Part shown: positions 36,693 through 48,698 of the stretch, piece by piece
How the letters are laid out: every line of letters starts with the position of its first letter
How positions within the stretch are numbered: the first letter of the stretch is position 1
NCBI GenBank assembly: GCA_963726615.1
Contig: CAVSCX010000003.1
Coordinates: forward strand, 292,238 to 356,237
Direction: 5' to 3'
Source of the DNA: an uncultured Actinomycetota bacterium
GTDB taxonomy: Bacteria > Actinomycetota > Actinomycetes > JACCUZ01
DNA: 64,000 bases
Notes under the pieces: model-generated
Told to the model about the DNA's origin: nothing
The model's database searches: none
What the model saw: only the letters and a program-made list of their open reading frames with translations
Program-made: the position numbers and the translations under genes

Positions 36693-37358
36693 GTGAACGG
36701 ACGGGTGCTGGTCGTCGAGGACGACCACGGCCTGCGCGACGTGGTGGCCCGCGGGCTGCGCGAGGCCGGCTTCGAGGTGACGACGGCGAGCGACGGGACG
36801 GGGGCCCTGCGCACTGCGGGGGCCGGGCAGTTCGACGTCGTGGTGCTGGACATCGGCCTGCCCGATGCGGACGGCCGCGACGTCTGTCAGGCGATGCGCG
36901 CTGCCGGGACCAGGGCACCGGTGGTGTTCCTCACCGCCAAGGACGGCGTCACCGACCGCCTGTCGGGCTTCGCCGCCGGCGGGGACGACTACCTGGCCAA
37001 GCCGTTCCACCTCGCGGAGCTCGTCGCCCGGCTGCGGGTCGCCGTCCGCCGCGGCGGGGAGCTCGCCGGGAGCACCGTCGGCGACCTGCAGGTGGACCCG
37101 GCCCGCCACGACCTGTCCGGACCGGCCGGGTCCGTGTCGCTGTCGCCCACGGAGTTCCGGCTGCTGGCCCGGCTGATGGCTCAGCCCGGCAGCGTCACCC
37201 GGCGGCACGAGCTCGTCGCAGCCGCCTGGGCCCATGGTTCCGTCGTCGCCGACAACACCCTGGACCAGTACGTCGCGAAGCTGCGCCGCAAGCTGGTCCA
37301 GGCGGGCAGCGAGCAGTCCATCGACACTGTGCGCGGCGTGGGCTACCGGCTCACGTGA
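36693..37358 (+). CDS. OmpR-family response regulator
   Basis: GTG start. VLVVEDDHGLRD...VVVLDIGLPDADG...LTAKDG. Winged helix TVRGVGYRL. Confidence 0.85.
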   Translation: MNGRVLVVEDDHGLRDVVARGLREAGFEVTTASDGTGALRTAGAGQFDVVVLDIGLPDADGRDVCQAMRAAGTRAPVVFLTAKDGVTDRLSGFAAGGDDYLAKPFHLAELVARLRVAVRRGGELAGSTVGDLQVDPARHDLSGPAGSVSLSPTEFRLLARLMAQPGSVTRRHELVAAAWAHGSVVADNTLDQYVAKLRRKLVQAGSEQSIDTVRGVGYRLT

Positions 37359-38683
37359 GGCGGCCACGCGCTCTGCGCAACCGGCTTGCCCTGGTCGCGC
37401 TGCTGAGCACCGGCGCCTGGGTGCTCGTGCTGACCGCCGTCTTCAACCTGCTGCTCACCGCACAGCTGAGCCGGCAGGCGGATGACGTGCTGCGCACCAG
37501 GGCAGCTGCTGTGGCCTCGACGGTGCTCGTGGCCGACGACGGGTCGGTGTCCCTGCGCGAGCCACCCAACGACGAGGCGCTGGACGCGGGGGTGTGGGTG
37601 TTCGCCGGGAGCACCGTGCTGGAGCAGCCGCGCGCCTCACCGACAGCCACCGCACAAGCCAGCCGGATGGCCTTGCGCGGCGGCCCGAGCTTCCGGGACG
37701 TGGCCGGCTCACCCACGGTCCGCCTGCACGTGCGCCCGTTGCGGCACGACGGGGCAAGGGTCGGGGCGATCGTCGTCGAGACCAGCCTGGAGCCGTACCG
37801 CCGGCCGTCGCGCGCGGCACTGGTGGGCTCGGTCCTGCTGGCGATGCTGGTGCTGGTCGGCGCCTTCGCAGCCACCCGGCAGGTGGTGCGCCGAGCCCTG
37901 GTGCCGGTGTCGGAGATGGCCGAGCAGGCGGCGCGGTGGAGCGCGCACGACGTCGGGCAGCGCTTCGGCGACGACCCGCGACCGGACGAGCTCCGCGATC
38001 TGGCAGGCAGCCTGGACGCCGTCCTCGACCGGATCGGCTCGGTGCTGCGGCACGAGCAGCAGCTGGCTGCCGAGATCTCGCACGAGCTGCGCACCCCGCT
38101 CGCCGTGATCTCCACCGAGACCGAGCTGCTGCTGTCGGGCGAGCGCGACGAGGACGAGCGACGGCGCGCCCATCGCGCGATCGCCGACACCGCGGACCGG
38201 ATGTCCACGCTGCTCGACGCCCTGCTCGCCCAGGCCGCCCAGGACGTCACCGAGGCGCCGGGGAGCTGCGTGGTCGCGCCGGTCGCCGAGCAGGTGCTGG
38301 CGTCGACCGGACCCTCCCCCACGACGTACGACGTCCAGGTGCCGGCCGACCTGGAGGTCGGCGTGACGGGCGACGTCCTCGCCCGCATCCTCATGGCGCT
38401 GGTGGGCAACGCGATGCGATACGCCGACGGGCGGGTCACGGTGGACGCTGTCCGGGCCGGGCACGAGGTGCGCATCCGCGTGCGCGACGACGGGCCGGGG
38501 GTGCCCGCCGCGTTCCGGGCCGACGTCTTCGAGCCGGGCCGCCGCGCCGAACCGGGTGACGGGCACCCCGGCGCCGGCCTCGGGCTGGCGCTGGCCCGAC
38601 GGCTGGCCCGCGCCGCCGGCGGGGACATCACCCTCGACGGCGACGCGGGGTCCGAGTTCGTCGTCGTCCTGCCACCCGCCTGA
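37355..38683 (+). CDS. Sensor histidine kinase
   Basis: GTG start overlapping RR stop (GTGA). Two TM. H-box AAEISHELRTPLAV. HATPase_c (LVGNAMRYA, GAGLGLALARR). Confidence 0.8.
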   Translation: MRRPRALRNRLALVALLSTGAWVLVLTAVFNLLLTAQLSRQADDVLRTRAAAVASTVLVADDGSVSLREPPNDEALDAGVWVFAGSTVLEQPRASPTATAQASRMALRGGPSFRDVAGSPTVRLHVRPLRHDGARVGAIVVETSLEPYRRPSRAALVGSVLLAMLVLVGAFAATRQVVRRALVPVSEMAEQAARWSAHDVGQRFGDDPRPDELRDLAGSLDAVLDRIGSVLRHEQQLAAEISHELRTPLAVISTETELLLSGERDEDERRRAHRAIADTADRMSTLLDALLAQAAQDVTEAPGSCVVAPVAEQVLASTGPSPTTYDVQVPADLEVGVTGDVLARILMALVGNAMRYADGRVTVDAVRAGHEVRIRVRDDGPGVPAAFRADVFEPGRRAEPGDGHPGAGLGLALARRLARAAGGDITLDGDAGSEFVVVLPPA

Positions 38684-38703
38684 GCGTGGGCAGGACAGCG
38701 ACG

Positions 38704-39501
38704 TCAGAGCGCGCGGACCTCCTCGACGTCGACCCTGGTCGCGGTCAGGTACGCGACCAGCACGAGGATCGCGCCGAGGAACGCGTAGCTCGTTCCCGTG
38801 GTGCCGAGGCCGATCCCGCCGTGCTTGTTCGACTGCGACATCAGGTCGCCGATCGAGGCACCAAGCGGGCGGGTGAGGATGTAGGCCAGCCAGAACGTCA
38901 GGACAGCGTTGGCCTTGAAGCCGTAGTGCGCGACGGCAACCAGGGCGATCGCCGCCGCGAACAGCAGCACCGACACGCCGTACCCGAGGGCGAACTGCTC
39001 GCCCACGAGGTCACCCGCGGCGGTGCCCAGGGCGAAGGTGAACAGGATCGCCAGCCAGTACCAGCTCTCGCGGCGCGACGTCACGATGCTGTGGATCGAC
39101 AGCGTGCCCTCGCTGCGGTACCAGAGGGCGAACGTGCCCGCGAGCAGCACGGCGAACACCGCCGTGCTCAGCGGCAACGGCACGCCGAAGCGGTCAGTGA
39201 GGTTGTCCGTGAGCAGCGTGCCGACCACGCTGATCACGACAACGGCCGCCCAGTAGACCGGTGCCACGTAGCGGCGGCTGCGGAACTGCCCGACCAGCAG
39301 GACCACGAGCAGCGCGGACGTCGCCACCGTCGTCCAGGTGAGGCCGAAGCCGAGCGTGTCGTTGAGGTAGTCGGCGGCCGTCTCGCCGACCGTCGTGGCC
39401 AGCACCTTGATCAGCCAGAAGTACAGCGTGACCTCGGGGACCTTGTTCAGCATCACCCGCACGGCGTCGCGGCGCGGGCTCGTCGTAGATGTCTCAGTCA
39501 T
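38704..39501 (-). CDS. Uncharacterised polytopic membrane protein (COG4705-like)
   Basis: Start at MTETSTTSP within the longer track ORF. ~7 TM. Confidence 0.55.
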   Translation of the reverse strand: MTETSTTSPRRDAVRVMLNKVPEVTLYFWLIKVLATTVGETAADYLNDTLGFGLTWTTVATSALLVVLLVGQFRSRRYVAPVYWAAVVVISVVGTLLTDNLTDRFGVPLPLSTAVFAVLLAGTFALWYRSEGTLSIHSIVTSRRESWYWLAILFTFALGTAAGDLVGEQFALGYGVSVLLFAAAIALVAVAHYGFKANAVLTFWLAYILTRPLGASIGDLMSQSNKHGGIGLGTTGTSYAFLGAILVLVAYLTATRVDVEEVRAL

Positions 39502-39579
39502 GGTGATCACGGTGACCGGCTGTGCCTGAACCCGACCTGACCAGTGGTTGGCGTCCCCGGGAGCGGGCAAGCGGGCCAC

Positions 39580-39960
39580 ATGGACGAGACATGGGACCTG
39601 TGGATCCGTGCGGTAGGGGCGACGGGGCTGTCGTTCGCGAGGGCGACTGTCGCCGCGGCGGCCGCCCGCGACCGGGTGCTGGTGCACGCCGCGCCGGAGC
39701 AGCTGGAGGTCGTGGTCCGGGACGGGAACGGCACCCTCGTCGCGGAGGGACGGGAGCTGGCGCGGGGCGAGCCCGGACCCATGACCTACCTGGTGCGGGA
39801 CGGGGACCAGATCCGGCTCGAGGACGGCTGGCCCACCGACGCCGACCTGGGTCGGCTGGTGATCCTGCCCGGCGGCGAGGCCGGTGTGCTCACCGCGTGG
39901 TGGCACGCGGAGGACCGGTCCGAGTGGCGCTGGTCGGTCGAGTTCGCCAACCACGTCTGA
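39580..39960 (+). CDS. Hypothetical protein (126 aa)
   Basis: Start at MDETWDLW. No recognised family. Divergent from the TauE gene. Confidence 0.45.
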   Translation: MDETWDLWIRAVGATGLSFARATVAAAAARDRVLVHAAPEQLEVVVRDGNGTLVAEGRELARGEPGPMTYLVRDGDQIRLEDGWPTDADLGRLVILPGGEAGVLTAWWHAEDRSEWRWSVEFANHV

Positions 39961-39988: not shown

Positions 39989-40768
39989 TCAGCTGCCGGC
40001 CCCCGGGTTGACCACCGCCTGCACGGCGACGAACGCGGCGACCAGCAGGACGAGCCCGGCGAACCCTCGACGCAGACGGTCCGCGGGCAGGCGGGTGGCC
40101 AGTCGCGCCGCGGCCAACGAGCCGGCGACCGCGGCACCGGTGAACACGGCGGCGAGGCCGTAGTCGACCTCCGCGCCGCCGACGTGCGCCGCGAACCCGG
40201 CGGCGGAGTTCACGGTCACCACGACCAGGGACGTGCCGACGGCGACCGCCATCGGCAGCCCCAGCAGCAGGACGAGTGCGGGGACCACGAGGAAGCCGCC
40301 CCCGACGCCGAACAGGCCGGTGAGCAGCCCGACGGCGACGCCCGACCCGATCGCCTTCGGCAGGCAGCCGCGCCAGTCCACCCGGCCGCCCGGCAGCGCG
40401 CAGTCCCCGCCGGCCTCCGGCTGCTCCCGGAGCATCCGGACAGCCGCCACGACCATCACCAGGGCGAAGCCGATGAGCACCATCCGGGGGTCCAGCGCCC
40501 GGTTCACCGCGGTCCCCGCGTAGGCGGCGGGGATACCAGCGGCACCCACGACCGCTGCGATGCGCCACTGGACCTGCCGCGCCCGGATCCGCGGGACGAC
40601 CGCAGCGGCGGCCGAGACCCCGACGACGAGCAACGACGTCGGCACCGCCGCCGACAGCGGCTGATCGGCGCCGTAGACCAGTGCCGGGACGGCGAGGATG
40701 CTGCCTCCGGCACCGAGCAGCCCGAGCAGGACCCCGATGGCCAGCCCGAGCGCGGCCGCGACAGCCAT
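39989..40768 (-). CDS. TauE/SafE (DUF81) sulfite/anion exporter family permease
   Basis: 259 aa. Two internal repeats each with GxGGG ([12 protein letters not shown] and [11 protein letters not shown]). ATGA overlap with upstream gene at 40768. Confidence 0.8.
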
Positions 40769-42153
40769 CAGCGGGCTGCGGCCGTCCTCGGCGCCTCGAG
40801 CCCGGCCTCCGCCGCCGCCGCGTAGTCCTCGTTCACGTGCACGACAGTCCGCCGGTCGACGTCGAGCATCGACGCGGCGATCGCGGCCCGGTACCCGGAG
40901 CCGCAGTACACCCACACCTCGCCGTCCGGCACCTCGGCCAACCGGTCCGGCAGCTCGTGGATGGGGATGTGCATCGACGCTTCGACATGTCCCGTGGCGC
41001 GCTCGTCGTGCCGTCGCGCGTCGAGCACGTGCACCTCGGCACTGTCGTCCTCCCCGAGACGGGCGGCGAGCCCGGCGAAGTCGGAGACGCGGTAGGTGCG
41101 CAGCGGACTTCCGGCGGCCATGGCCTCGACGTCGCCTACCGCGGCGCCCGCCAGCTCGTCGATACCGATGCGCACGAGCTCGCGCCGCGCATCGGCGACC
41201 TGCTCGGACGTCTCGCCGATGAGAGTGAGCGGGGCGCCCCACGGCACCAGCCATCCCACGTAGGTGACGAAGTTCGTACCCAGCTCGAAGTTCCGGCTGC
41301 CCGTCAGGTGACCGGCCGCGAACGCTGTCCGTTCGCGCAGGTCCACGACCCACTCTCCGGCCTCGATCCGTGAGCGCAGCTCGGCCGGGTCGACCGGCCG
41401 GGGGGCGCCGAGGTCGACCGGCTCCGGGCCGCGGTTGTTGGCCGGCCCCATGTGCGCGTAGTAGGCGGGGTAGGCGTCCAGCCCGGCGAGCAGCGTCTCG
41501 ACGTAGGTCTGCTCGTCCTGGGTGAGGGCCGGGTTCGTGGCACGCTGCTCCGCCACGGTGGAGTCGTCGCCTGAGGTCGGGGTGGCCGAGCAGAAGCTGC
41601 CGAACCCGTGGGTGGGCAGCACCTGGGCGTCGGACGGCAGGTCCGCAGCCAGCCGGCGCACCGACCGGTACTGCGCGCGGGTCAGGTCCACGGTGTGCTC
41701 CGGGCCGACGAGGTCCGTCCGGCCGGTGGAGCCGAACAGCATGGACCCGCCGGTCAGGACTGCCTGGACCGGGCCGTCCAGCACCGCGACGGCGTAGGCG
41801 ACGTGGTGGTGGGTGTGGCCCGGGGTGTGCAGCACCGACACCCGTAGGTCCCCCACCTCGAACGTGTCACCGTCGGCCACCGGCGTGTGCGGGAACTGTG
41901 CACCCATGTCGTGCGGCACGACGTAGGAAGCCCCGGCGACAGTCGCCAGCTCGAGGCCGCCGGTGACGTAGTCGTTGTGCCCGTGGGTCTCCGCGACGGC
42001 TGCGATGCGGACTCCCAGCGTCTGCGCCAGGTCCAGCACTCGGTCGATGTCGCGCTGCGGGTCGACGACAAGGGCGACGGTGCCGTCGGTGAGCAGGTAG
42101 CTGCGGTCACCGAGCGACGGTGTCTCGATCACGTGGTGGGTGAGTCCGGACAT
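40768..42153 (-). CDS. Persulfide dioxygenase (ETHE1-like MBL fold) fused to C-terminal rhodanese domain (CstB-like)
   Basis: Start at MSGLTHHV. MBL metal motif AETHGHNDYVTG plus HTPGHT. C-terminal rhodanese with active-site CGSGYRA. Confidence 0.8.
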   Translation of the reverse strand: MSGLTHHVIETPSLGDRSYLLTDGTVALVVDPQRDIDRVLDLAQTLGVRIAAVAETHGHNDYVTGGLELATVAGASYVVPHDMGAQFPHTPVADGDTFEVGDLRVSVLHTPGHTHHHVAYAVAVLDGPVQAVLTGGSMLFGSTGRTDLVGPEHTVDLTRAQYRSVRRLAADLPSDAQVLPTHGFGSFCSATPTSGDDSTVAEQRATNPALTQDEQTYVETLLAGLDAYPAYYAHMGPANNRGPEPVDLGAPRPVDPAELRSRIEAGEWVVDLRERTAFAAGHLTGSRNFELGTNFVTYVGWLVPWGAPLTLIGETSEQVADARRELVRIGIDELAGAAVGDVEAMAAGSPLRTYRVSDFAGLAARLGEDDSAEVHVLDARRHDERATGHVEASMHIPIHELPDRLAEVPDGEVWVYCGSGYRAAIAASMLDVDRRTVVHVNEDYAAAAEAGLEAPRTAAAR

Positions 42154-42169
42154 CTCGCTGCCTCCCGTC

Positions 42170-42517
42170 TCAGGCCGGCTCCGAGCCGGCGACAACCGGG
42201 TTGCCCGCCTTCATCCAGCCGCCGGTGCCCCCGGCGACCGAACGCGCGTCCGCACCGGCCTGGCCGAGCAGCCCGGCGCCGGCCTTGCTCCGGTTCCCCG
42301 AGGCGCAGACGACGAACACCGGGGCTCCGGCTGCCTCCCGTACCAGGTCGTCGGTGTGACGTCCGAGCTGGTCGAGCGGGATGTTGCGCGCGCCAGGGAC
42401 GTGGCCGCCGACGTACTCGTCCGGCTCGCGAACGTCCACGGTCAGCGCGCCCGCTGCATGGGCGGTGGCGAAGTCGGCGAGCTCGGTCTCACGGACGGTG
42501 TTGCCTTGGCTGGACAT
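42170..42517 (-). CDS. Single-domain rhodanese-like sulfurtransferase
   Basis: 115 aa. GAGGAG RBS. Active-site loop CASGNRS. Confidence 0.75.
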   Translation of the reverse strand: MSSQGNTVRETELADFATAHAAGALTVDVREPDEYVGGHVPGARNIPLDQLGRHTDDLVREAAGAPVFVVCASGNRSKAGAGLLGQAGADARSVAGGTGGWMKAGNPVVAGSEPA

Positions 42518-42529
42518 CAACACTCCTCT

Positions 42530-42545
42530 ATACGGGTGGGGGTAT
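42530..42545. promoter_or_regulatory. Operator-like box 1: ATACGGGTGGGGGTAT (ATAC-N8-GTAT), in the 5'UTR of the rhodanese operon
   Basis: Exact reverse complement of box 2. Sits immediately upstream of the rhodanese RBS. Confidence 0.5.
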
Positions 42546-42655
42546 CGTTCGAACCTATCAAGGCGCCGGGACCGGCCCTCATTCCGGTCTGCCCCGGTCA
42601 ACCTCCGACATACCCCGGCGGGGGCGTCTCGCACTCCTGCTTGCGGTATGGCAAC

Positions 42656-42671
42656 ATACCCCCACCCGTAT
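42656..42671. promoter_or_regulatory. Operator-like box 2: ATACCCCCACCCGTAT, 24 nt upstream of the MMPL GTG start
   Basis: Exact reverse complement of box 1, 110 nt away. Same ATAC-N8-GTAT architecture. Confidence 0.5.
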
Positions 42672-42694
42672 CCGAGAAACCGCGAGGACCCTCC

Positions 42695-44869
42695 GTGACG
42701 ACTGCCCCGACCGCCCGCGACACGAGCGTCAGCGGCCCCAAGAACACCAGGGACGACGGTAATGCCCGGCTGGGCCCGCTCGGCCGCCTCGGTGTGTGGA
42801 CCGCCACCCGTGCCCGGACTGTCTTCGTCGTGTGGCTGCTGATCGTCGTCTCCCTGGGGGCCTTCGCGCCGAAGGTGGAGCACGCGCTCGCCGGCGCCGG
42901 CTGGGAGGCGTCGGGGTCGGAGTCGGTCGCCGTGCGGGACATCGCGCACCGCGAGTTCGGCGGGATGTCGAGCGCCGCTCTCCAGGTCGTCGTGCACACC
43001 GACTCGGGCACCGTGACCACCGGTCCCGGCCGGGTCGCGGTCGACCGGGCCGTGGCACTGCTGCGCGCCGACGATCGGGTCTCCACCGTCCAAGCGCCGC
43101 GGCCCGGCACGTCGCTGTCCCCCGACGGACGCACTGCACTGATCCGCGGCGGCGCAGCCAGTGCCAACACCAACGAGATGGTCCGCGCGGCGGACGACCT
43201 CAAGGGACCGGTGCGCGACCTGAGCGGTGACGACGTGACTGTCGCGCTCACGGGGTCGTCCGCGCTGTGGAGCGACTTCAACGCCGCCAACCTCGACGCG
43301 ATGATGAAGAGCGAGCTCATCAGCTGGCCGGTCACACTGGTCATCCTCGTGCTCGCGTTCGGGTCCCTGGTGGCCGCCGGCCTGCCGCTGATGCTGACGA
43401 TCACCGGGCTGGTCGCCGCAGCCGGATCCCTCTACCTCGGCACCCTGCTCGGTGACATCAGCATCTGGGCGATGAACTTCGCGCTGATGTTCGCGCTCGC
43501 GCTGGGCATCGACTACGCACTGTTCGTGGTCGTCCGGTACCGAGCCGCGCGGTTCGGAGACCACCAGAACACCCGGTCAGCCGTTGGCGAGACCATGGAC
43601 ACGGCCGGCAAGGCGGTCCTCTTCTCCGGCGTCACCGTCCTGGTCTCCCTGTCGGCAGTGATGCTGGTGCCGTCGCCGGCCTTCCGCTCGATGGCCCTCG
43701 GCATCATGCTCGCCGTCGTCTTCGTCCTGGCCGCGACGCTGACCCTGCTCCCGGCCGTCCTCGGGAAGCTCGGTCACCGGGTGGACGCCCTCGCACTGCC
43801 CTGGGTGCACGCCGGTGAGCACCGGTCGCTCCGCTTCGAGCGGTGGGCCCAGCGGTTGTGGCGTCGGCCGGTCGGCTACGGACTGCTCGCCCTCGTGGCC
43901 CTCGCTGTCCTCGCAGCCCCGGTGCTGGGACTACGGACCGGGATGCCCTCGATCAAGGTCGTTCCGGAGACCGACTCCAGCCGGGTCGGCTACGCCGCCG
44001 TCCAGGACGCGTTCGGCCCGGGCGCACCAGGCACGCTGCAGGTCGTCGTCCCCCAGGACCGGGCCGGCCGGGCCGCGGCCGTGCTCGCCGACGATCCGGG
44101 AGTGGTCATGGTCATGCCGCCCGCTGCCGGCATTGGGAAGAAGGTCCTGCTGGCCGCCGTACCCGACGACGGCCCGTCCACCCGCGCCCTGGGCACGACG
44201 ATCGACCGGCTCCGTGCCGACCTGCCGTCGGAGGCCCTCGTCGGAGGCCCCTCGGCCGAGAACCACGACCTCGAGCGGCTGCTGGCCGACAAGACACCAC
44301 TGGTCATCGGCGTCGTGCTGGCGCTCGGCTTCCTGCTGCTGCTGGTCGCCCTGCAGGCGCCGCTGGTGGCGGCTCTGGGCACCCTGACGAACCTGCTCGC
44401 CACCGGTGCCGCCTTCGGCGTGGCGAAGCTGATCTTCCAGGACGGGCACGGATCGGGCCTGCTCGGGTTCGAGCCGCAGGGCTTCCTCGACGCCTGGGCT
44501 CCGGTGTTCTTCTTCGCCATGATCTTCGCCATCGGCATGGACTACACCGTCTTCCTGCTGGCGTCCGCGAAGGAGCACTGGGAGCGGTCGAACGACGCAC
44601 GCGAGGCGATGGTGGGCGGGCTGGCGCACTCCGGCCGGGTCATCTTCGCCGCTGCCGGCGTGATGGTCGCTGTCTTCTTCACCTTCGCCCTGTCCGGCCC
44701 GCTCCCCCCGAAGGAGATGGGTGTCGTCCTCGGCGTCGCCGTGCTCCTCGACGCAGCGCTGGTCCGTCTCCTGCTGCTGCCGGTGCTCCTGCGACTCAGC
44801 GGCCGAGCCGCGTGGGCTTCGCCCTCCTGGTTGCGCCGGCTGCTGCCGCGGGTGCGGTTCAGCCACTGA
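42695..44869 (+). CDS. MMPL-family (RND superfamily) membrane transporter
   Basis: 724 aa from GTG preceded by GAGGA. Two 6-TM bundles each followed by an extracytoplasmic domain. Confidence 0.8.
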   Translation: MTTAPTARDTSVSGPKNTRDDGNARLGPLGRLGVWTATRARTVFVVWLLIVVSLGAFAPKVEHALAGAGWEASGSESVAVRDIAHREFGGMSSAALQVVVHTDSGTVTTGPGRVAVDRAVALLRADDRVSTVQAPRPGTSLSPDGRTALIRGGAASANTNEMVRAADDLKGPVRDLSGDDVTVALTGSSALWSDFNAANLDAMMKSELISWPVTLVILVLAFGSLVAAGLPLMLTITGLVAAAGSLYLGTLLGDISIWAMNFALMFALALGIDYALFVVVRYRAARFGDHQNTRSAVGETMDTAGKAVLFSGVTVLVSLSAVMLVPSPAFRSMALGIMLAVVFVLAATLTLLPAVLGKLGHRVDALALPWVHAGEHRSLRFERWAQRLWRRPVGYGLLALVALAVLAAPVLGLRTGMPSIKVVPETDSSRVGYAAVQDAFGPGAPGTLQVVVPQDRAGRAAAVLADDPGVVMVMPPAAGIGKKVLLAAVPDDGPSTRALGTTIDRLRADLPSEALVGGPSAENHDLERLLADKTPLVIGVVLALGFLLLLVALQAPLVAALGTLTNLLATGAAFGVAKLIFQDGHGSGLLGFEPQGFLDAWAPVFFFAMIFAIGMDYTVFLLASAKEHWERSNDAREAMVGGLAHSGRVIFAAAGVMVAVFFTFALSGPLPPKEMGVVLGVAVLLDAALVRLLLLPVLLRLSGRAAWASPSWLRRLLPRVRFSH

Positions 44870-44876
44870 AAGGCGC

Positions 44877-44892
44877 ATACCCTGGCGTGTAT
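44877..44892. promoter_or_regulatory. Operator-like box 3: ATACCCTGGCGTGTAT, 19 nt upstream of the CstR-like gene
   Basis: Same ATAC-N8-GTAT frame as boxes 1 and 2, with a less G/C-run core. Confidence 0.4.
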
Positions 44893-44910
44893 CGAGAGAG
44901 TGGAGTCGTC

Positions 44911-45171
44911 GTGCAGGTGGACCTCGAGACCGTCGGACCGGTCGTGAACCGGCTCAAGCGCGCCCAGGGGCAGCTGGCCGGGGTGCTGCGGATGCTGGAG
45001 GAGGAGCGGGACTGCGCGGACGTCGTGACCCAGCTCGCCGCGGTGTCCCGTGCGCTGGACAAGGCAGGGTTCGCCCTCATCGCGGCCGGCCTCGAGCAAT
45101 GTCTCCGTGCCGGCGACGACGGTGCGCTGGACCGCGAGAAGCTCGAGAAGGTCTTCATGTCGCTGGCCTGA
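44911..45171 (+). CDS. CsoR/RcnR-family (DUF156) repressor, CstR-like (two Cys, no His)
   Basis: 86 aa from GTG. VNRLKRAQGQLAGVLRMLEEERDCADVVTQLAAVSRALDKAGFALIAAGLEQC. Cys residues 29 apart, as in S. aureus CstR. No His at the Cu-ligand position. Confidence 0.7.
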   Translation: MQVDLETVGPVVNRLKRAQGQLAGVLRMLEEERDCADVVTQLAAVSRALDKAGFALIAAGLEQCLRAGDDGALDREKLEKVFMSLA

Positions 45172-45245
45172 CCTGGCTGCCGACCGGCACGGCATTGGCC
45201 GGCTCGGCCGTGCGGGGTCCGACGGCAGCTCGCGGCGATCCAGGC

Positions 45246-45857
45246 TCAGGCGGACCCGGTCAGGGCAGGCAGCCGTCGCCGGCGGCGCACCGCCACTGCG
45301 CTGAGCGCGAGCAGGACGACGGCGAGCGCAGCTGCACCGGCCAGCACCCGACCGGCGACGGGCTGCGGACCGTCGTCGCCGAGCGGGCCCGGGTCGAACG
45401 AGGCGCTGAGTCCCAGTCCGCGGACGGGACCGGCCTCGGCGACGTGGACCTCGCCGGTGGCCGTCCCGACTGTGGGCCCCAACGTCGCCACCCGCAGGAC
45501 CCACCGGCCGGCCGGCAGGTGGATCCGTGCGGTGTAGAGACCGGGCGCGGACCGGTCCGGCATCAGGCGCACGGAGCGCTCGCCCTGGGGGCCGGACAGG
45601 GCCGCCAGCACGAACTCGTCCACGACCGGCTCGCGGTCGCCGGCGTAGACGACGAGGGCCTGGACGACGGCGGCCGATGCGTCACCGGCCACCGCCAGCC
45701 TGATCTCGGAGGTGCCGCTGTGGGCGTCGGCCGGCGCCGACGCCAGGCCGGTCAGGGCTGCGACGAGGCATAGCAGCGCGACGTACCGACGGACCGCCCT
45801 GGGCGCGCGGGCGCGAAGCGGCTTTCCGGCAGGCGCCGCCTTCGCTGTCCCGACCAT
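45246..45857 (-). CDS. Secreted, C-terminally TM-anchored hypothetical protein with predicted mature N-terminal His
   Basis: Start at MVGTAKAAP... Signal ...LTGLASAPADA|HSGTSE. C-terminal TM plus RRRRR stop-transfer. Confidence 0.45.
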   Translation of the reverse strand: MVGTAKAAPAGKPLRARAPRAVRRYVALLCLVAALTGLASAPADAHSGTSEIRLAVAGDASAAVVQALVVYAGDREPVVDEFVLAALSGPQGERSVRLMPDRSAPGLYTARIHLPAGRWVLRVATLGPTVGTATGEVHVAEAGPVRGLGLSASFDPGPLGDDGPQPVAGRVLAGAAALAVVLLALSAVAVRRRRRLPALTGSA

Positions 45858-45991
45858 GACGACGACGCTAGGCAGTTCCGACCCCGCGCACGCCGGCCGC
45901 GTCCGGACTGTCATCGACCTGTCATGCGGCCCCGACCGCTGCTGGCGTCACCGCGGACGACCACCCGGGGGACTGACCCCGGGCTGTCCGC

Positions 45992-46669
45992 TCACGACGC
46001 GCCGGACTCCAGGGCTCCCTCGAGGCCGTCGAGCAGGAGGTCGAGACCGAACGCGAACTCCTTGCCGTAGTCGTAGCCCGGCTTCAGGACGTGCTCGAAG
46101 GTGAGCTCGGCGAGGTGCGGGTACTCGTCGACCGGGAACCGCGCGAGGATTGCCTGCGCGAGCTCGGCGATCTGCTCCGGGGACTCGAACGGCAGGGCCC
46201 GATCGGACATCGCGAAGCCGTAGATGTAGCTGTCGAGGGCGGCGTACGCGTGCGCGACGAGCGCGATGGGGAAGCCGGCGCGCCGGAGGCAGGCGATGAC
46301 GTCGTCGTGGTGCCGGAGGTTGGCGGGCCCGGGTGCGCTGCGGGACTCCATCAGCCCGTTGGCCCACCGGTGGCGGCCGAGGACCTCGCGGACGGACACG
46401 CCGCGGGCTCGCATCGCGGTCTTCCAGTCGACGTCGGACGGGATCTCGATCTCGGCGAAGACGAGGTCGATCATGCCGTCGAGGAGGTCGTCGCGGTTCG
46501 CGACGTGGTGGTACAACGACATCGCCTCCACCCCGAGCGCGTTGCCCAGCTTGCGCATGCTGAGCCACTCGAGACCGTGCTCGTCGGCAAGCGCCAGCCC
46601 CGTACGCAGCACGCGCTCCCTGGACAGCGGGGTCCGCGGTTCGGGTCGGACGTCGGACGACGCGGACAT
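45992..46669 (-). CDS. TetR/AcrR-family transcriptional regulator
   Basis: Start at MSASSDV. N-terminal HTH ([27 protein letters not shown]). Confidence 0.75.
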
Positions 46670-46754
46670 CGTCGGCTCCTCTCGCGGCATGCCCCCGGGG
46701 TTCCGGTCGGCTGTCGCGCCCATCTTACGTTGTAAGGCACGGGTGCCGCGCCGT

Positions 46755-47006
46755 TCAGCGGCGGTTGAGCAGCCAGACGCGGACGCGGTGCAGCTGCGGC
46801 ATCACGCCGTAGATGACGACGGGGACGGCGATCGTGGCGAGGACGAGGGTCCGGACGACGACCGACAGGTCCTGCAGGTACGGACCCAGTGACACGTTGA
46901 GCACGGTCAGGGTCGGGAAGACGGCGACCCAGATCATCAGGGCCAGCTGGTGCTTGGTCGGCGGGGTCATCCTGGCCGGCGGGACGGCGACGGGCTGGTT
47001 CGACAT
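46755..47006 (-). CDS. Small membrane protein (83 aa, 2 TM)
   Basis: Immediately upstream of the TetR gene, same strand. Confidence 0.45.
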
Positions 47007-47087
47007 GGTGATGCTCCTTTATGTGGTGGGGATGAAGGGGTCGGCGGGAGCCGCCGCCACAGGCGTCGGCTGCCCGGATCGTTCGGG

Positions 47088-48020
47088 CTAGCGCGCGAGT
47101 TCGCCGCGGTGGCGGACGGCTCGGTCGACGTCCTCCTCGACGAGGTCGGCGTTGATGGCGATGGCCGCCGTCGAGCCTTCACCGGCAGCGGTGATGACCT
47201 GGGCCCGCGGATTCGCGAGGTTCCCGGCGACCCAGACGCCGGTCACAGTGGTGCGTCCGGTCGGGTCTGTCTCCGGCCAGCCGGCGCTGTCGACGGCGCA
47301 CCCGAGGTCCGTCAGCAGGTCGTTGTGGGGGACGAAGCTCGGGCGGACGAACACTGCCGCCCGGGGAACGGCCCGGCCGTCCTCGAGCTCGAGGCCGCGG
47401 AGCACGTCGTCGACGACGGCGACACGGGCCACGGCGCCGTCGACGACACCGATGCCCCGGGCGGCAAGCTGCTCCCGCTGGTCGGCGGTCGATGGGTCGG
47501 TGTGGGTGAACAAGATGACGTCGGAGGACCACTGCCGCACCAGCTGCGCATGGGCCATCGCCTCCGGCGTCCCACCGAGCACGGCGATCGGCTGGTCACG
47601 CACCTCGTACCCGTGGCAGTACGGGCAGTGCAGGACGTCCCTGCCCCACCGCTCCCGCAGTCCGGGGACGTCCGGGATCTCGTCTCGTAGGCCGGTGGCG
47701 ACCAGCAGGCGGCGGGCCATCAGCTGCGACCCGTCTCGCAGGCGCACCTGGAAGCCGGGCCGGCCCACCACGTCGACCGCGACCACCCGGCCGTCGAGAA
47801 GGCGCCCGCCGTAGCCGGCGACCTCCTCCCGGCCGGCGGACAGCAGGTCCCTGGGAGACATGCCGTCCCTGGAGAGGAAGCCCTGCATGTGGGCGGCCGG
47901 GGCGTTGCGCGGCTCACCCGCATCGACAACCGTGACGGTGCGCCGCGCCCGGGTCAGCACGAGTGCCGCCGACAGCCCGGCGGCGCCGCCGCCGATGATC
48001 ACCACGTCGTTGTCGTCCAT
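47088..48020 (-). CDS. NAD(P)/FAD-dependent oxidoreductase (thioredoxin-reductase-like, CPYC motif)
   Basis: Start at MDDNDVVIIGGGAAGLSAAL (GxGxxG). HCPYCHGYE redox-active site. Confidence 0.75.
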   Translation of the reverse strand: MDDNDVVIIGGGAAGLSAALVLTRARRTVTVVDAGEPRNAPAAHMQGFLSRDGMSPRDLLSAGREEVAGYGGRLLDGRVVAVDVVGRPGFQVRLRDGSQLMARRLLVATGLRDEIPDVPGLRERWGRDVLHCPYCHGYEVRDQPIAVLGGTPEAMAHAQLVRQWSSDVILFTHTDPSTADQREQLAARGIGVVDGAVARVAVVDDVLRGLELEDGRAVPRAAVFVRPSFVPHNDLLTDLGCAVDSAGWPETDPTGRTTVTGVWVAGNLANPRAQVITAAGEGSTAAIAINADLVEEDVDRAVRHRGELAR

Positions 48021-48098
48021 GCCCTCGACGGTGCCCGCGCCACGCCGGATCGACAACTCTTGTTGCCATAACCGGGAACTGCGCCGTTCACTGGTGCC

Positions 48099-48698
48099 AT
48101 GGACTCCGCTACCGCCATGGCCGCCGCGCTCGAGCAGGTCGGGCCGCGCATCAAGCGGATCCGCTCCCAGCGGGGCATCACGCTGACCGCACTCGCCGCG
48201 ACGACCGGCATCTCCATCAGCACCTTGTCACGCCTCGAGACCGGGCAGCGGCGCCCGAGCCTGGAGCTGCTGCTGCCGCTGGCCCAGGCCTACCGCGTGC
48301 CCCTCGACGACCTCGTCGGGGCGCCGGAGGTCGGCGACCCGCGGGTCCGGCCCAAGCCGCGGCGCGTCAACGGCCGTACCGTCCTGCCGCTGACCGGCCA
48401 GCCCGGAGGCATGCAGGCCTGGAAGATCCTCGTCCCCGCGTCCCAGACCGAGCCGCAGCTGAAGGCGCACGAGGGGTACGAGTGGCTCTACGTTCTCGCC
48501 GGTCGGATGCGCCTCGTCCTCGGTGACCACGACCTCGCGCTCGGCGCCGGCGAGGTGGCCGAGTTCGACACCCGGGTGCCGCACTGGTTCGGAAGCACGG
48601 GTAAGGGCCCCGCGGAGATCTTGAGCCTCTTCGGGCCGCAGGGCGAGCGGTTGCACGTCCGGGCGAAGTCCAGACGGGACGACACCGGTCAACCATGA
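48099..48698 (+). CDS. XRE-family HTH regulator with C-terminal cupin domain
   Basis: HTH IKRIRSQRGITLTALAATTGISISTLSRLETGQRRPSL. Cupin GYEWLYVLAGRMRL. Divergent from the oxidoreductase. Confidence 0.75.
   Translation: MDSATAMAAALEQVGPRIKRIRSQRGITLTALAATTGISISTLSRLETGQRRPSLELLLPLAQAYRVPLDDLVGAPEVGDPRVRPKPRRVNGRTVLPLTGQPGGMQAWKILVPASQTEPQLKAHEGYEWLYVLAGRMRLVLGDHDLALGAGEVAEFDTRVPHWFGSTGKGPAEILSLFGPQGERLHVRAKSRRDDTGQP

Follow-up and report, generated by a model that had tools for sequence, protein, structure and literature searches.

A sulfur-cluster-linked MMPL/RND-type transporter gene beside a predicted CstR-type repressor gene in an uncultured Actinomycetota bacterium

The MMPL gene and the surrounding cst-like locus

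The 64-kb stretch of DNA analyzed here (64,000 nt of contig CAVSCX010000003.1 from an uncultured Actinomycetota bacterium; hereafter, the window) contains, at 42695–44869 on the plus strand, a gene encoding a 724-amino-acid (aa) transporter of the MMPL family (RND superfamily); this gene precedes a gene for a CsoR-family repressor of the CstR (persulfide-sensor) type and is divergent from an operon of sulfur-detoxification genes. The organization of this and related loci suggests that the protein is, on balance, probably a proton-motive-force-driven exporter that belongs to the CstR regulon, is repressed by CstR, and serves reactive-sulfur detoxification. Because the G+C content of the window is ~74%, genes were called from codon-position GC (GC3 frame analysis) instead of from raw open reading frames. 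The MMPL gene called in this way has a GTG start codon preceded by a GAGGAC ribosome-binding site and is also present in the public gene call for the source contig (ENA ERZ25039476, contig_2619); both calls and the match to PF03176 agree with an earlier note on this DNA, made from the letters alone, which had placed a 724-aa MMPL gene at this position.

The MMPL protein matches PF03176 in two domain stretches (E = 6.6e-70; 236 bits vs. a cut-off of 20.5), and its closest relatives of solved structure are MmpL3 (E = 8e-48), followed by MmpL5 and MmpL4, with HpnN more distant. Both Asp-Tyr proton-relay pairs of the MmpL3 chain (in the equivalents of transmembrane helices TM4 and TM10), which we take to be D256-Y257 and D645-Y646, have aligned counterparts in D273-Y274 and D616-Y617 of the window protein, and these four residues are invariant across 13 orthologs; because both pairs are conserved, the protein looks like an active pump. 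An AlphaFold (AF2) model of moderate confidence (mean pLDDT 64.5), which was used for fold confirmation and not for substrate inference, has a layout that fits 12 helices with an extracytoplasmic alpha/beta domain following each of TM1 and TM7, and a Foldseek comparison with MmpL3 (7n6b) gave a TM-score of 0.77 at 24% identity. The two MMPL domains, the predicted 12-helix, two-domain layout, and the Asp-Tyr relay pairs are thus features shared with MmpL3, MmpL4, and MmpL5, but the window protein differs from MmpL3 (1013 aa) and MmpL5 (964 aa) in its length as well as in this 24% identity. MmpL3 orthology was rejected (190 bits for NCBIfam NF052608 vs. an equivalog cut-off of 1400), and none of the curated NCBIfam models matched above its cut-off. 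Judged by its sequence, the protein is a genuine MMPL/RND pump and the ortholog of no characterized member.

The strand opposite the MMPL gene carries a typical cst-like operon of three genes. The first (42170–42517, minus strand), which is also present in the public gene call, encodes a single-domain rhodanese (115 aa; PF00581, E = 1.6e-15) with the active-site loop CASGNRS. The second (40768–42153, minus strand) encodes a fusion of a metallo-beta-lactamase (MBL)-fold persulfide dioxygenase (PDO) and a rhodanese, similar to CstB and type III PDOs (461 aa, a length also found in the public gene call; PF00581, E = 3.3e-15); its Lactamase_B match is weak, and its matches to the NCBIfam GloB-like (4.4e-19) and Blh (2e-9) models both fall under the cut-off. 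The last gene (39989–40768, minus strand; delimited in the GC3 frame plot) encodes a TauE/SafE-type sulfite exporter (PF01925, E = 3.6e-49).

The repressor gene (44911–45171, plus strand) follows the MMPL stop codon after a 41-nt spacer and encodes an 86-aa protein matching PF02583 (E = 1.2e-22; 80.5 bits vs. a cut-off of 22.8); none of the NCBIfam models matched this protein above its cut-off. Its best solved relative is Streptococcus pneumoniae CstR (SpCstR; 7MQ1, E = 7e-14), with Cys35 and Cys64, 29 residues apart, aligning to the sensing residues Cys30 and Cys59 of SpCstR, while Gly60 occupies the position of the Cu(I)-ligand His of Geobacillus thermodenitrificans CsoR. The same Cys/Gly/Cys pattern is common to all 23 other MMPL-linked regulators that were aligned, three of which are plasmid-borne. 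Within the CsoR family, the x-C-x-C signature has been used to tell sensors of persulfide apart from those of metals (Fakhoury et al. 2021, PMC8643695). The window regulator combines this signature with a CsoR fold, sulfide-detoxification neighbors, and nearby operators of the ATACC-N6-GGTAT type, and the CstR-like identity proposed in the earlier note is borne out; the protein would join the actinobacterial group represented by sequence similarity network (SSN) cluster 3 of PMC8643695. A metal-related locus, with a regulator sensing Cu(I) or some other thiophilic metal and a pump exporting metal or metal-thiolate complexes, is very unlikely: although the family is annotated as "metal-sensitive transcriptional regulator" and plasmid-borne copies of the cluster (see below) lie amid P-type ATPase, cadmium, and DUF305 genes, Gly replaces the Cu-ligand His in 24 of 24 aligned regulators, SpCstR, the closest relative of solved structure, senses persulfide, the neighboring genes encode rhodanese, PDO, TauE, and SQR-like proteins and not CopA/CopZ, and the Streptomyces coelicolor homolog with the same operator answers sulfane sulfur (PMC7533328).

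Three matches to ATAC-N8-GTAT were found in the window (at 42530, 42656, and 44877), all of them at the MMPL locus, compared with zero matches in 100 shuffles. Box 1 (ATACGGGTGGGGGTAT, 42530–42545) lies 12 nt from the start codon of the rhodanese gene and reads as the reverse complement of box 2 (ATACCCCCACCCGTAT, 16 bp, 42656–42671), which is located 23 nt upstream of the MMPL GTG; the operator-like box that the earlier note had reported in front of the MMPL gene is therefore present, with a spacing of 23 nt instead of the 24 nt given there. Box 3 (ATACCCTGGCGTGTAT, 44877–44892) lies within the MMPL-cstR spacer. Each of these predicted CsoR/CstR-type operators is one mismatch away from the ScCsoR site ATACCn6GGTAT, which was defined by electrophoretic mobility shift assay in S. 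coelicolor (PMC7533328), the window boxes having CGTAT or TGTAT in one arm and not GGTAT. In an alignment of the intergenic regions with those of orthologous loci (L001–L003), box 1 was unchanged despite diverged flanks, box 2 was kept with a single substitution in L001, and box 3 was kept as well; an equivalent of box 3 is present in L007, and a one-mismatch version precedes cstR in L060. A half-box (ATACCCCGGCGGGGGC, 42610–42625) that retains the left arm and the C-tract and lacks the GTAT arm is of uncertain function, but ATACCCCG in this region is kept in four of four aligned intergenic regions. In L002 and L003 (84% MMPL identity), the divergent spacer has drifted, yet boxes 1 and 2, the half-box, and the ribosome-binding site are unchanged.

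The earlier note had also described the MMPL gene as the first gene of a transcription unit that ends in cstR. cstR is indeed the next gene on the plus strand, and no terminator-like site was found in the MMPL-cstR spacer, the sole terminator-like match (44656–44672) being at chance level and within the MMPL coding region; a single transcription unit is nevertheless not established, because of the conserved box 3 in the spacer.

The locus resembles the ScCsoR circuit of S. coelicolor (SCO0618–SCO0621), whose four genes have been delimited experimentally (Lu et al. 2020, PMC7533328), in having a two-Cys CsoR-family repressor, multiple 16-bp operators including one at the repressor gene, and, as controlled genes, a PDO-rhodanese fusion with the architecture of SCO0618, a TauE exporter, and a single-domain rhodanese. 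Unlike the S. coelicolor circuit, which has no MMPL transporter, the window has an MMPL gene between the divergent operator region and cstR. The cst operons under CstR control in Firmicutes (Staphylococcus aureus, Enterococcus, and Streptococcus; PMC8643695) likewise combine an x-C-x-C sensor with sulfurtransferases, a persulfide dioxygenase, and a TauE-type exporter, but RND or MMPL transporters are mentioned zero times in the main text of that paper. The "SUL" modules of Arthrobacter plasmids include an MFS transporter and not an MMPL transporter.

Gene neighborhoods of MMPL orthologs

The best 120 protein-database hits to the MMPL protein showed >70% identity, and a scan of one genome per species yielded 80 ortholog loci (64–98% identity) from Solirubrobacterales, other Thermoleophilia, Gaiellales, Nocardioides, Aeromicrobium, Marmoricola, Kitasatospora, Streptomyces, Frankiaceae, Kineosporiaceae, and a few others; these taxon labels may be imprecise, as the genomes are mostly metagenome-assembled. 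Genes in the 80 loci were called with a simple GC3-based caller, and the four neighbors on each side of the MMPL gene were clustered, with clusters named according to Pfam. A first tblastn pass with the window proteins as queries (E ≤ 1e-5) detected neighboring sulfur genes for only around half of the orthologs; divergent rhodaneses and YgaP-like proteins were recovered only on clustering all neighbors. With clustering, a sulfur gene was found within four genes of the MMPL gene in 72 of the 80 loci and immediately adjacent to it in 69. Neighbors included rhodanese-containing proteins (62 loci), YgaP-like transmembrane (TM) proteins (21), TauE (18), DUF302 proteins (16), and SQR-like flavoproteins (11), as well as thioredoxin, OsmC-like, and DsrE-like proteins; CsoR-like genes were assigned in 11 loci by clustering and in more by tblastn. 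The MMPL orthologs are thus a sulfur-linked subfamily, almost always located next to sulfur genes.

At least five gene orders carry this association. The window type has the sulfur operon, a divergent spacer, and then MMPL-cstR; a second order, found in Nocardioides, has cstR and, across a divergent spacer, rhodanese-PDO-TauE-MMPL; a third has cstR-DUF302-thioredoxin divergent from the MMPL gene; a fourth is MMPL-YgaP_TM-SQR-like; and most Thermoleophilia show rhodanese-YgaP_TM-MMPL. The adjacency of MMPL and cstR, which the earlier note would have discounted if unique to this strain, recurs in L001–L003, L007, L060, and L087, and other combinations of an MMPL gene, a CsoR-like gene, a box, and sulfide-oxidation genes were found in Nocardioides, Aeromicrobium, Marmoricola, Kitasatospora, Streptomyces, Kineosporiaceae, and Rhodococcus/Tsukamurella plasmids. 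At ~15 loci, MMPL and the rhodanese or YgaP-like gene upstream of it share 4 nt at the MMPL start, indicating translational coupling of these genes to MMPL.

The YgaP-like TM proteins (PF11127; 21 of 21 members matching at E ≤ 1, best 5e-11) carry an invariant Cys in a G-x-C-P motif (e.g., L038, 2980–3240; L050, 8474–8674; and pBD2, L082, 8088–8423). Rhodanese and/or YgaP-like TM genes adjoin the MMPL gene in 21 loci and on plasmids, an arrangement reminiscent of the membrane-anchored rhodanese YgaP of Escherichia coli; where both genes are present, they look like E. coli YgaP split in two. The window locus differs in having a rhodanese gene and no YgaP-like TM gene, and we know of no association of E. 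coli YgaP with an RND pump.

Orthologs with 58–64% identity are encoded on more than 30 plasmids of Rhodococcus, Tsukamurella, and Nocardia. On Rhodococcus erythropolis pBD2 and a Rhodococcus fascians plasmid, the order as annotated is MMPL, YgaP-like TM protein, DUF302 protein, TauE, "metal-sensitive transcriptional regulator", and MBL-fold hydrolase; pBD2 has two boxes upstream of the MMPL gene. The identity of MMPL proteins to the window protein is bimodal (58–64% or ~30%), and the two paralogs with ~30% identity that were inspected lie in a nonribosomal peptide synthetase (NRPS) cluster and beside lnt and cell-wall genes, respectively; as both contexts are unrelated to sulfur, the sulfur association is specific to this MMPL subfamily.

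These neighborhoods bear on the possibility that the pump is a conventional lipid or glycolipid exporter through which the envelope is remodeled under sulfide stress. The solved structures closest to the protein (MmpL3, MmpL4, and MmpL5) would fit such a role, but no lipid or siderophore biosynthesis genes (pks, fadD, or acyltransferase) or mmpS recur in the 80 neighborhoods, where sulfur enzymes and carriers recur instead; the window locus differs in the same way from those of mycobacterial MmpL3, MmpL4, and MmpL5, having sulfur genes nearby in place of an mmpS partner or lipid/siderophore biosynthesis genes. In addition, the genes translationally coupled to MMPL encode rhodanese and YgaP-like TM proteins, and the subfamily spans Thermoleophilia and plasmids, i.e., lineages with envelopes expected to be very different, so that lipid export seems quite improbable. 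Among the roles raised in the earlier note, export of a sulfur metabolite fits the observed contexts, but export of a sulfur-modified lipid and envelope remodeling are unsupported because the subfamily is accompanied by no lipid-biosynthesis genes or mmpS.

A few other features of these loci were recorded. A SAM-dependent methyltransferase gene (Methyltransf_25/11) lies just downstream of MMPL in Nocardioides-group loci (L032, 8315–9043; L045; L055; L067), and seven of the 150 unclustered neighbors scanned were of this type; such an enzyme could conceivably methylate sulfide or thiols. The plasmid-borne MMPL/sulfur clusters (L082 from pBD2, L083, and L084) are located amid genes for P-type ATPases, a cadmium transporter, DUF305 proteins, and TlpA/CcdA/ResB thiol-disulfide proteins, and a functional tie of sulfide handling to metal resistance on plasmids is possible. 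Orthologous MMPL proteins were 64–75% identical to the window protein, compared to 33–55% for rhodanese, 29–57% for PDO, and 32–53% for TauE (L001–L080), a difference that holds even between the classes Thermoleophilia and Actinomycetes; this high conservation and the carriage on plasmids suggest horizontal spread, strong constraint, or both. Cys depletion was dropped as a clue to sulfur handling: although 71 of 81 subfamily members (the 80 orthologs and the window protein, which is one of the 71) have no Cys, unrelated MMPL paralogs also have only 0–2 Cys, and the depletion is hence not specific to the subfamily.

Predicted operators in related loci

A search of 1.03 Mb of ortholog loci yielded 32 matches to ATAC-N8-GTAT in 19 loci; the motif is directly upstream of MMPL in 13 loci and ahead of the first gene of rhodanese-PDO-TauE-MMPL in six. 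A second class of box, AWCCCCC-N(1-4)-GGGGGWT, was found in six further loci (L019, L045, L050, L055, L067, and L075) and on a Tsukamurella plasmid (L083, 5920–5975), often as paired copies ~34 bp apart. This class co-varies with a second regulator subtype, in which the N-terminal helix reads ITRMKRANGHL instead of VNRLKRAQGQL, supporting the boxes as cognate sites of the adjacent regulators. Overall, 25 loci have CsoR-type boxes ahead of the MMPL gene or of the operon that contains it.

These boxes make it very likely that CstR controls the MMPL gene, as far as can be judged from sequence. The alternative that the adjacency is meaningless, with MMPL transcribed from a constitutive promoter of its own and the boxes serving only the rhodanese operon and cstR, could draw on the promoter scan, which mapped none, and on box 3, which could supply a cstR promoter. 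It is nonetheless extremely improbable, as box 2 is 23 nt from the MMPL start and distinct from box 1 at the rhodanese start, a box is found directly upstream of MMPL in 13 other loci, including L029 and L032, in which no sulfur gene was called on the opposite strand, and a sulfur gene directly adjoins the MMPL gene in 69 of 80 ortholog loci.

A different palindrome, ACAAC-N6-GTTGT (consensus ACAACTGTTAAGTTGT), was identified by DNA motif search, with 23 matches in 22 loci (L011, L017, L026, L030, L031, L034, L036, L038–L040, L046, L048, L052, L054, L056, L058, L062, L065, L073, L077, L078, and L080). It is nearly always located 15–60 nt upstream of a rhodanese-(YgaP_TM)-MMPL operon or in the divergent spacer of this operon, and the 22 loci have neither a CsoR-like gene nor a CsoR-type box; a search of the 64-kb window found no copy. 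A Pfam scan of 150 unclustered neighbors from loci without a CsoR-like gene revealed no recurrent regulator family, and the palindrome looks like the operator of a different regulator encoded away from the locus.

Proposed function, candidate substrates, and flanking genes

Disposal of excess sulfane sulfur is understood mainly through soluble enzymes (i.e., SQR, persulfide dioxygenase, and rhodanese) and the TauE anion exporter. A role of the MMPL protein in reactive-sulfur homeostasis is quite likely given its gene neighborhoods. From the gene identities, the positions and conservation of the boxes, and the linkage with sulfur genes, all of which were computed, we infer how the locus would be repressed and induced, in which direction the pump would transport, and what it might carry. 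When reactive sulfur is low, a tetramer of the CstR-like protein would occupy the ATACC-N6-(G/C/T)GTAT boxes of two spacers, the divergent one separating rhodanese from MMPL and the one separating MMPL from cstR, and would thereby repress the rhodanese and PDO-rhodanese-TauE genes on one strand and MMPL-cstR on the other; both divergent promoters would thus be shut by CstR, possibly along with a cstR promoter at box 3. Persulfide or polysulfide would then crosslink Cys35 and Cys64, the repressor would leave the DNA, and all genes would be expressed together, with the MMPL protein expelling sulfur species left over by the enzymes and TauE.

Sulfane-sulfur species can be proposed only tentatively as the substrate. 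The leading candidate would be a sulfane sulfur that partitions into the membrane, for example polysulfide (inorganic or organic), S8, or the persulfide of a low-molecular-weight thiol, and in many relatives this substrate may reach the pump via the rhodanese and the YgaP-like membrane protein. This proposal derives from the operons shared with TauE, the amphiphile-type substrates of the family, and the partners that recur most persistently (rhodanese, the Cys-bearing YgaP-like membrane protein, and, at some loci, the SQR-like flavoprotein). Known substrates of MMPL/HAE2 transporters (MmpL3, MmpL4, and MmpL5) are amphiphiles taken from the membrane or the periplasmic face, not small anions. 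Export of hydrophilic end products (thiosulfate and/or sulfite), beside or instead of TauE, could be imagined from the regulons and operons common to MMPL and PDO-rhodanese, which would make these anions, and from the many ortholog loci that have MMPL and no TauE; it is unlikely, however, since the family substrates are amphiphilic and since a single operon encodes both TauE and MMPL in Nocardioides and on Rhodococcus plasmids, which suggests different jobs and speaks against MMPL being just another sulfite exporter.

Several points weigh against export of sulfane sulfur under CstR control or narrow its reach. A scan of 42100–45400 for sigma-70-type consensus promoters gave zero matches, the overlap of the boxes with a promoter is assumed by analogy to S. 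coelicolor, and box 3 hints that cstR may have an autoregulated promoter of its own. In a reverse search from the regulator, only six of 80 metagenomic CstR-like loci, and three of the 14 with >2.5 kb on both sides, carried an MMPL ortholog, which makes MMPL an accessory and not a core member of CstR regulons. Approximately 55 of the 80 ortholog loci lack both a CsoR-like gene and a CsoR-type box, and 22 of these have the other palindrome ahead of the operon, so that CstR control would be specific to the window lineage and several others and would not extend to the whole subfamily. Finally, the sequence and the low-confidence model (mean pLDDT 64.5) point to no particular substrate, and, to our knowledge, every characterized MMPL protein moves lipids or siderophores.

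Under a broader reading, which is speculative and rather doubtful as a whole, the MMPL subfamily would represent a first case of an RND-type system devoted to the efflux of zero-valent (sulfane) sulfur, in which sulfur from a rhodanese persulfide would be passed to the YgaP-like Cys or directly to the pump and expelled from the membrane as polysulfide or S8. Such a system would have spread on plasmids through soil Actinomycetota and come under at least three regulators (two CstR/operator subtypes and a factor binding ACAAC-N6-GTTGT). Among open-access papers and bioRxiv preprints, none was found that describes an association of MMPL with CstR or sulfur clusters; both the CstR regulon and the MMPL family are already known, and what looks new is an MMPL subfamily dedicated to sulfur clusters. 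That a highly conserved RND-type pump accompanies sulfur genes on plasmids and in dozens of actinobacterial species implies that a transport step is missing from the current picture of sulfane-sulfur disposal, and such a role would extend the MMPL family past lipid and siderophore export. Cultured carriers include R. erythropolis BD2 (plasmid pBD2), Nocardioides species, Streptomyces sp. NBC_00114, and Paraconexibacter sp. AEG42_29; a single pump operon with operators that differ by lineage would also be useful for studying regulatory rewiring.

Two metagenomic contigs from loci with a CstR-like gene (L092, 417–851, and L093, 5111–5545) contain a 145-aa stretch with 47–49% identity to part of the MMPL protein and no Pfam match; it is divergent from the CstR-like gene, which precedes SQR-like and thioredoxin genes, and may represent either the remnant of a gene or a small protein in its own right.

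In the window, the gene that comes directly after cstR lies on the opposite strand and encodes a predicted 222-aa protein (45246–45914, minus strand) with an N-terminal signal-like segment, a His right after the likely cleavage site (ADA|HSG), and, at its C terminus, a membrane anchor; Pfam and NCBIfam gave zero matches, and among the 80 ortholog loci only L001 has a homolog at the equivalent position. The adjoining region (45992–48698) is a separate small cluster without CsoR-type boxes that contains genes for a TetR regulator (45992–46723, minus strand), an 83-aa membrane protein without a family match (46755–47006, minus strand), a thioredoxin-reductase-like flavoprotein (47088–48056, minus strand), and a divergent XRE-cupin regulator (48099–48698, plus strand). 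On the other side, the region adjoining TauE (36693–39957) contains a response regulator and histidine kinase pair (36693–38683, plus strand), a DUF7712 protein gene (39544–39957, plus strand; E = 3.4e-53), and a gene for a DUF347 membrane protein (38704–39507, minus strand), which is also found near the cluster in L001 and L002.

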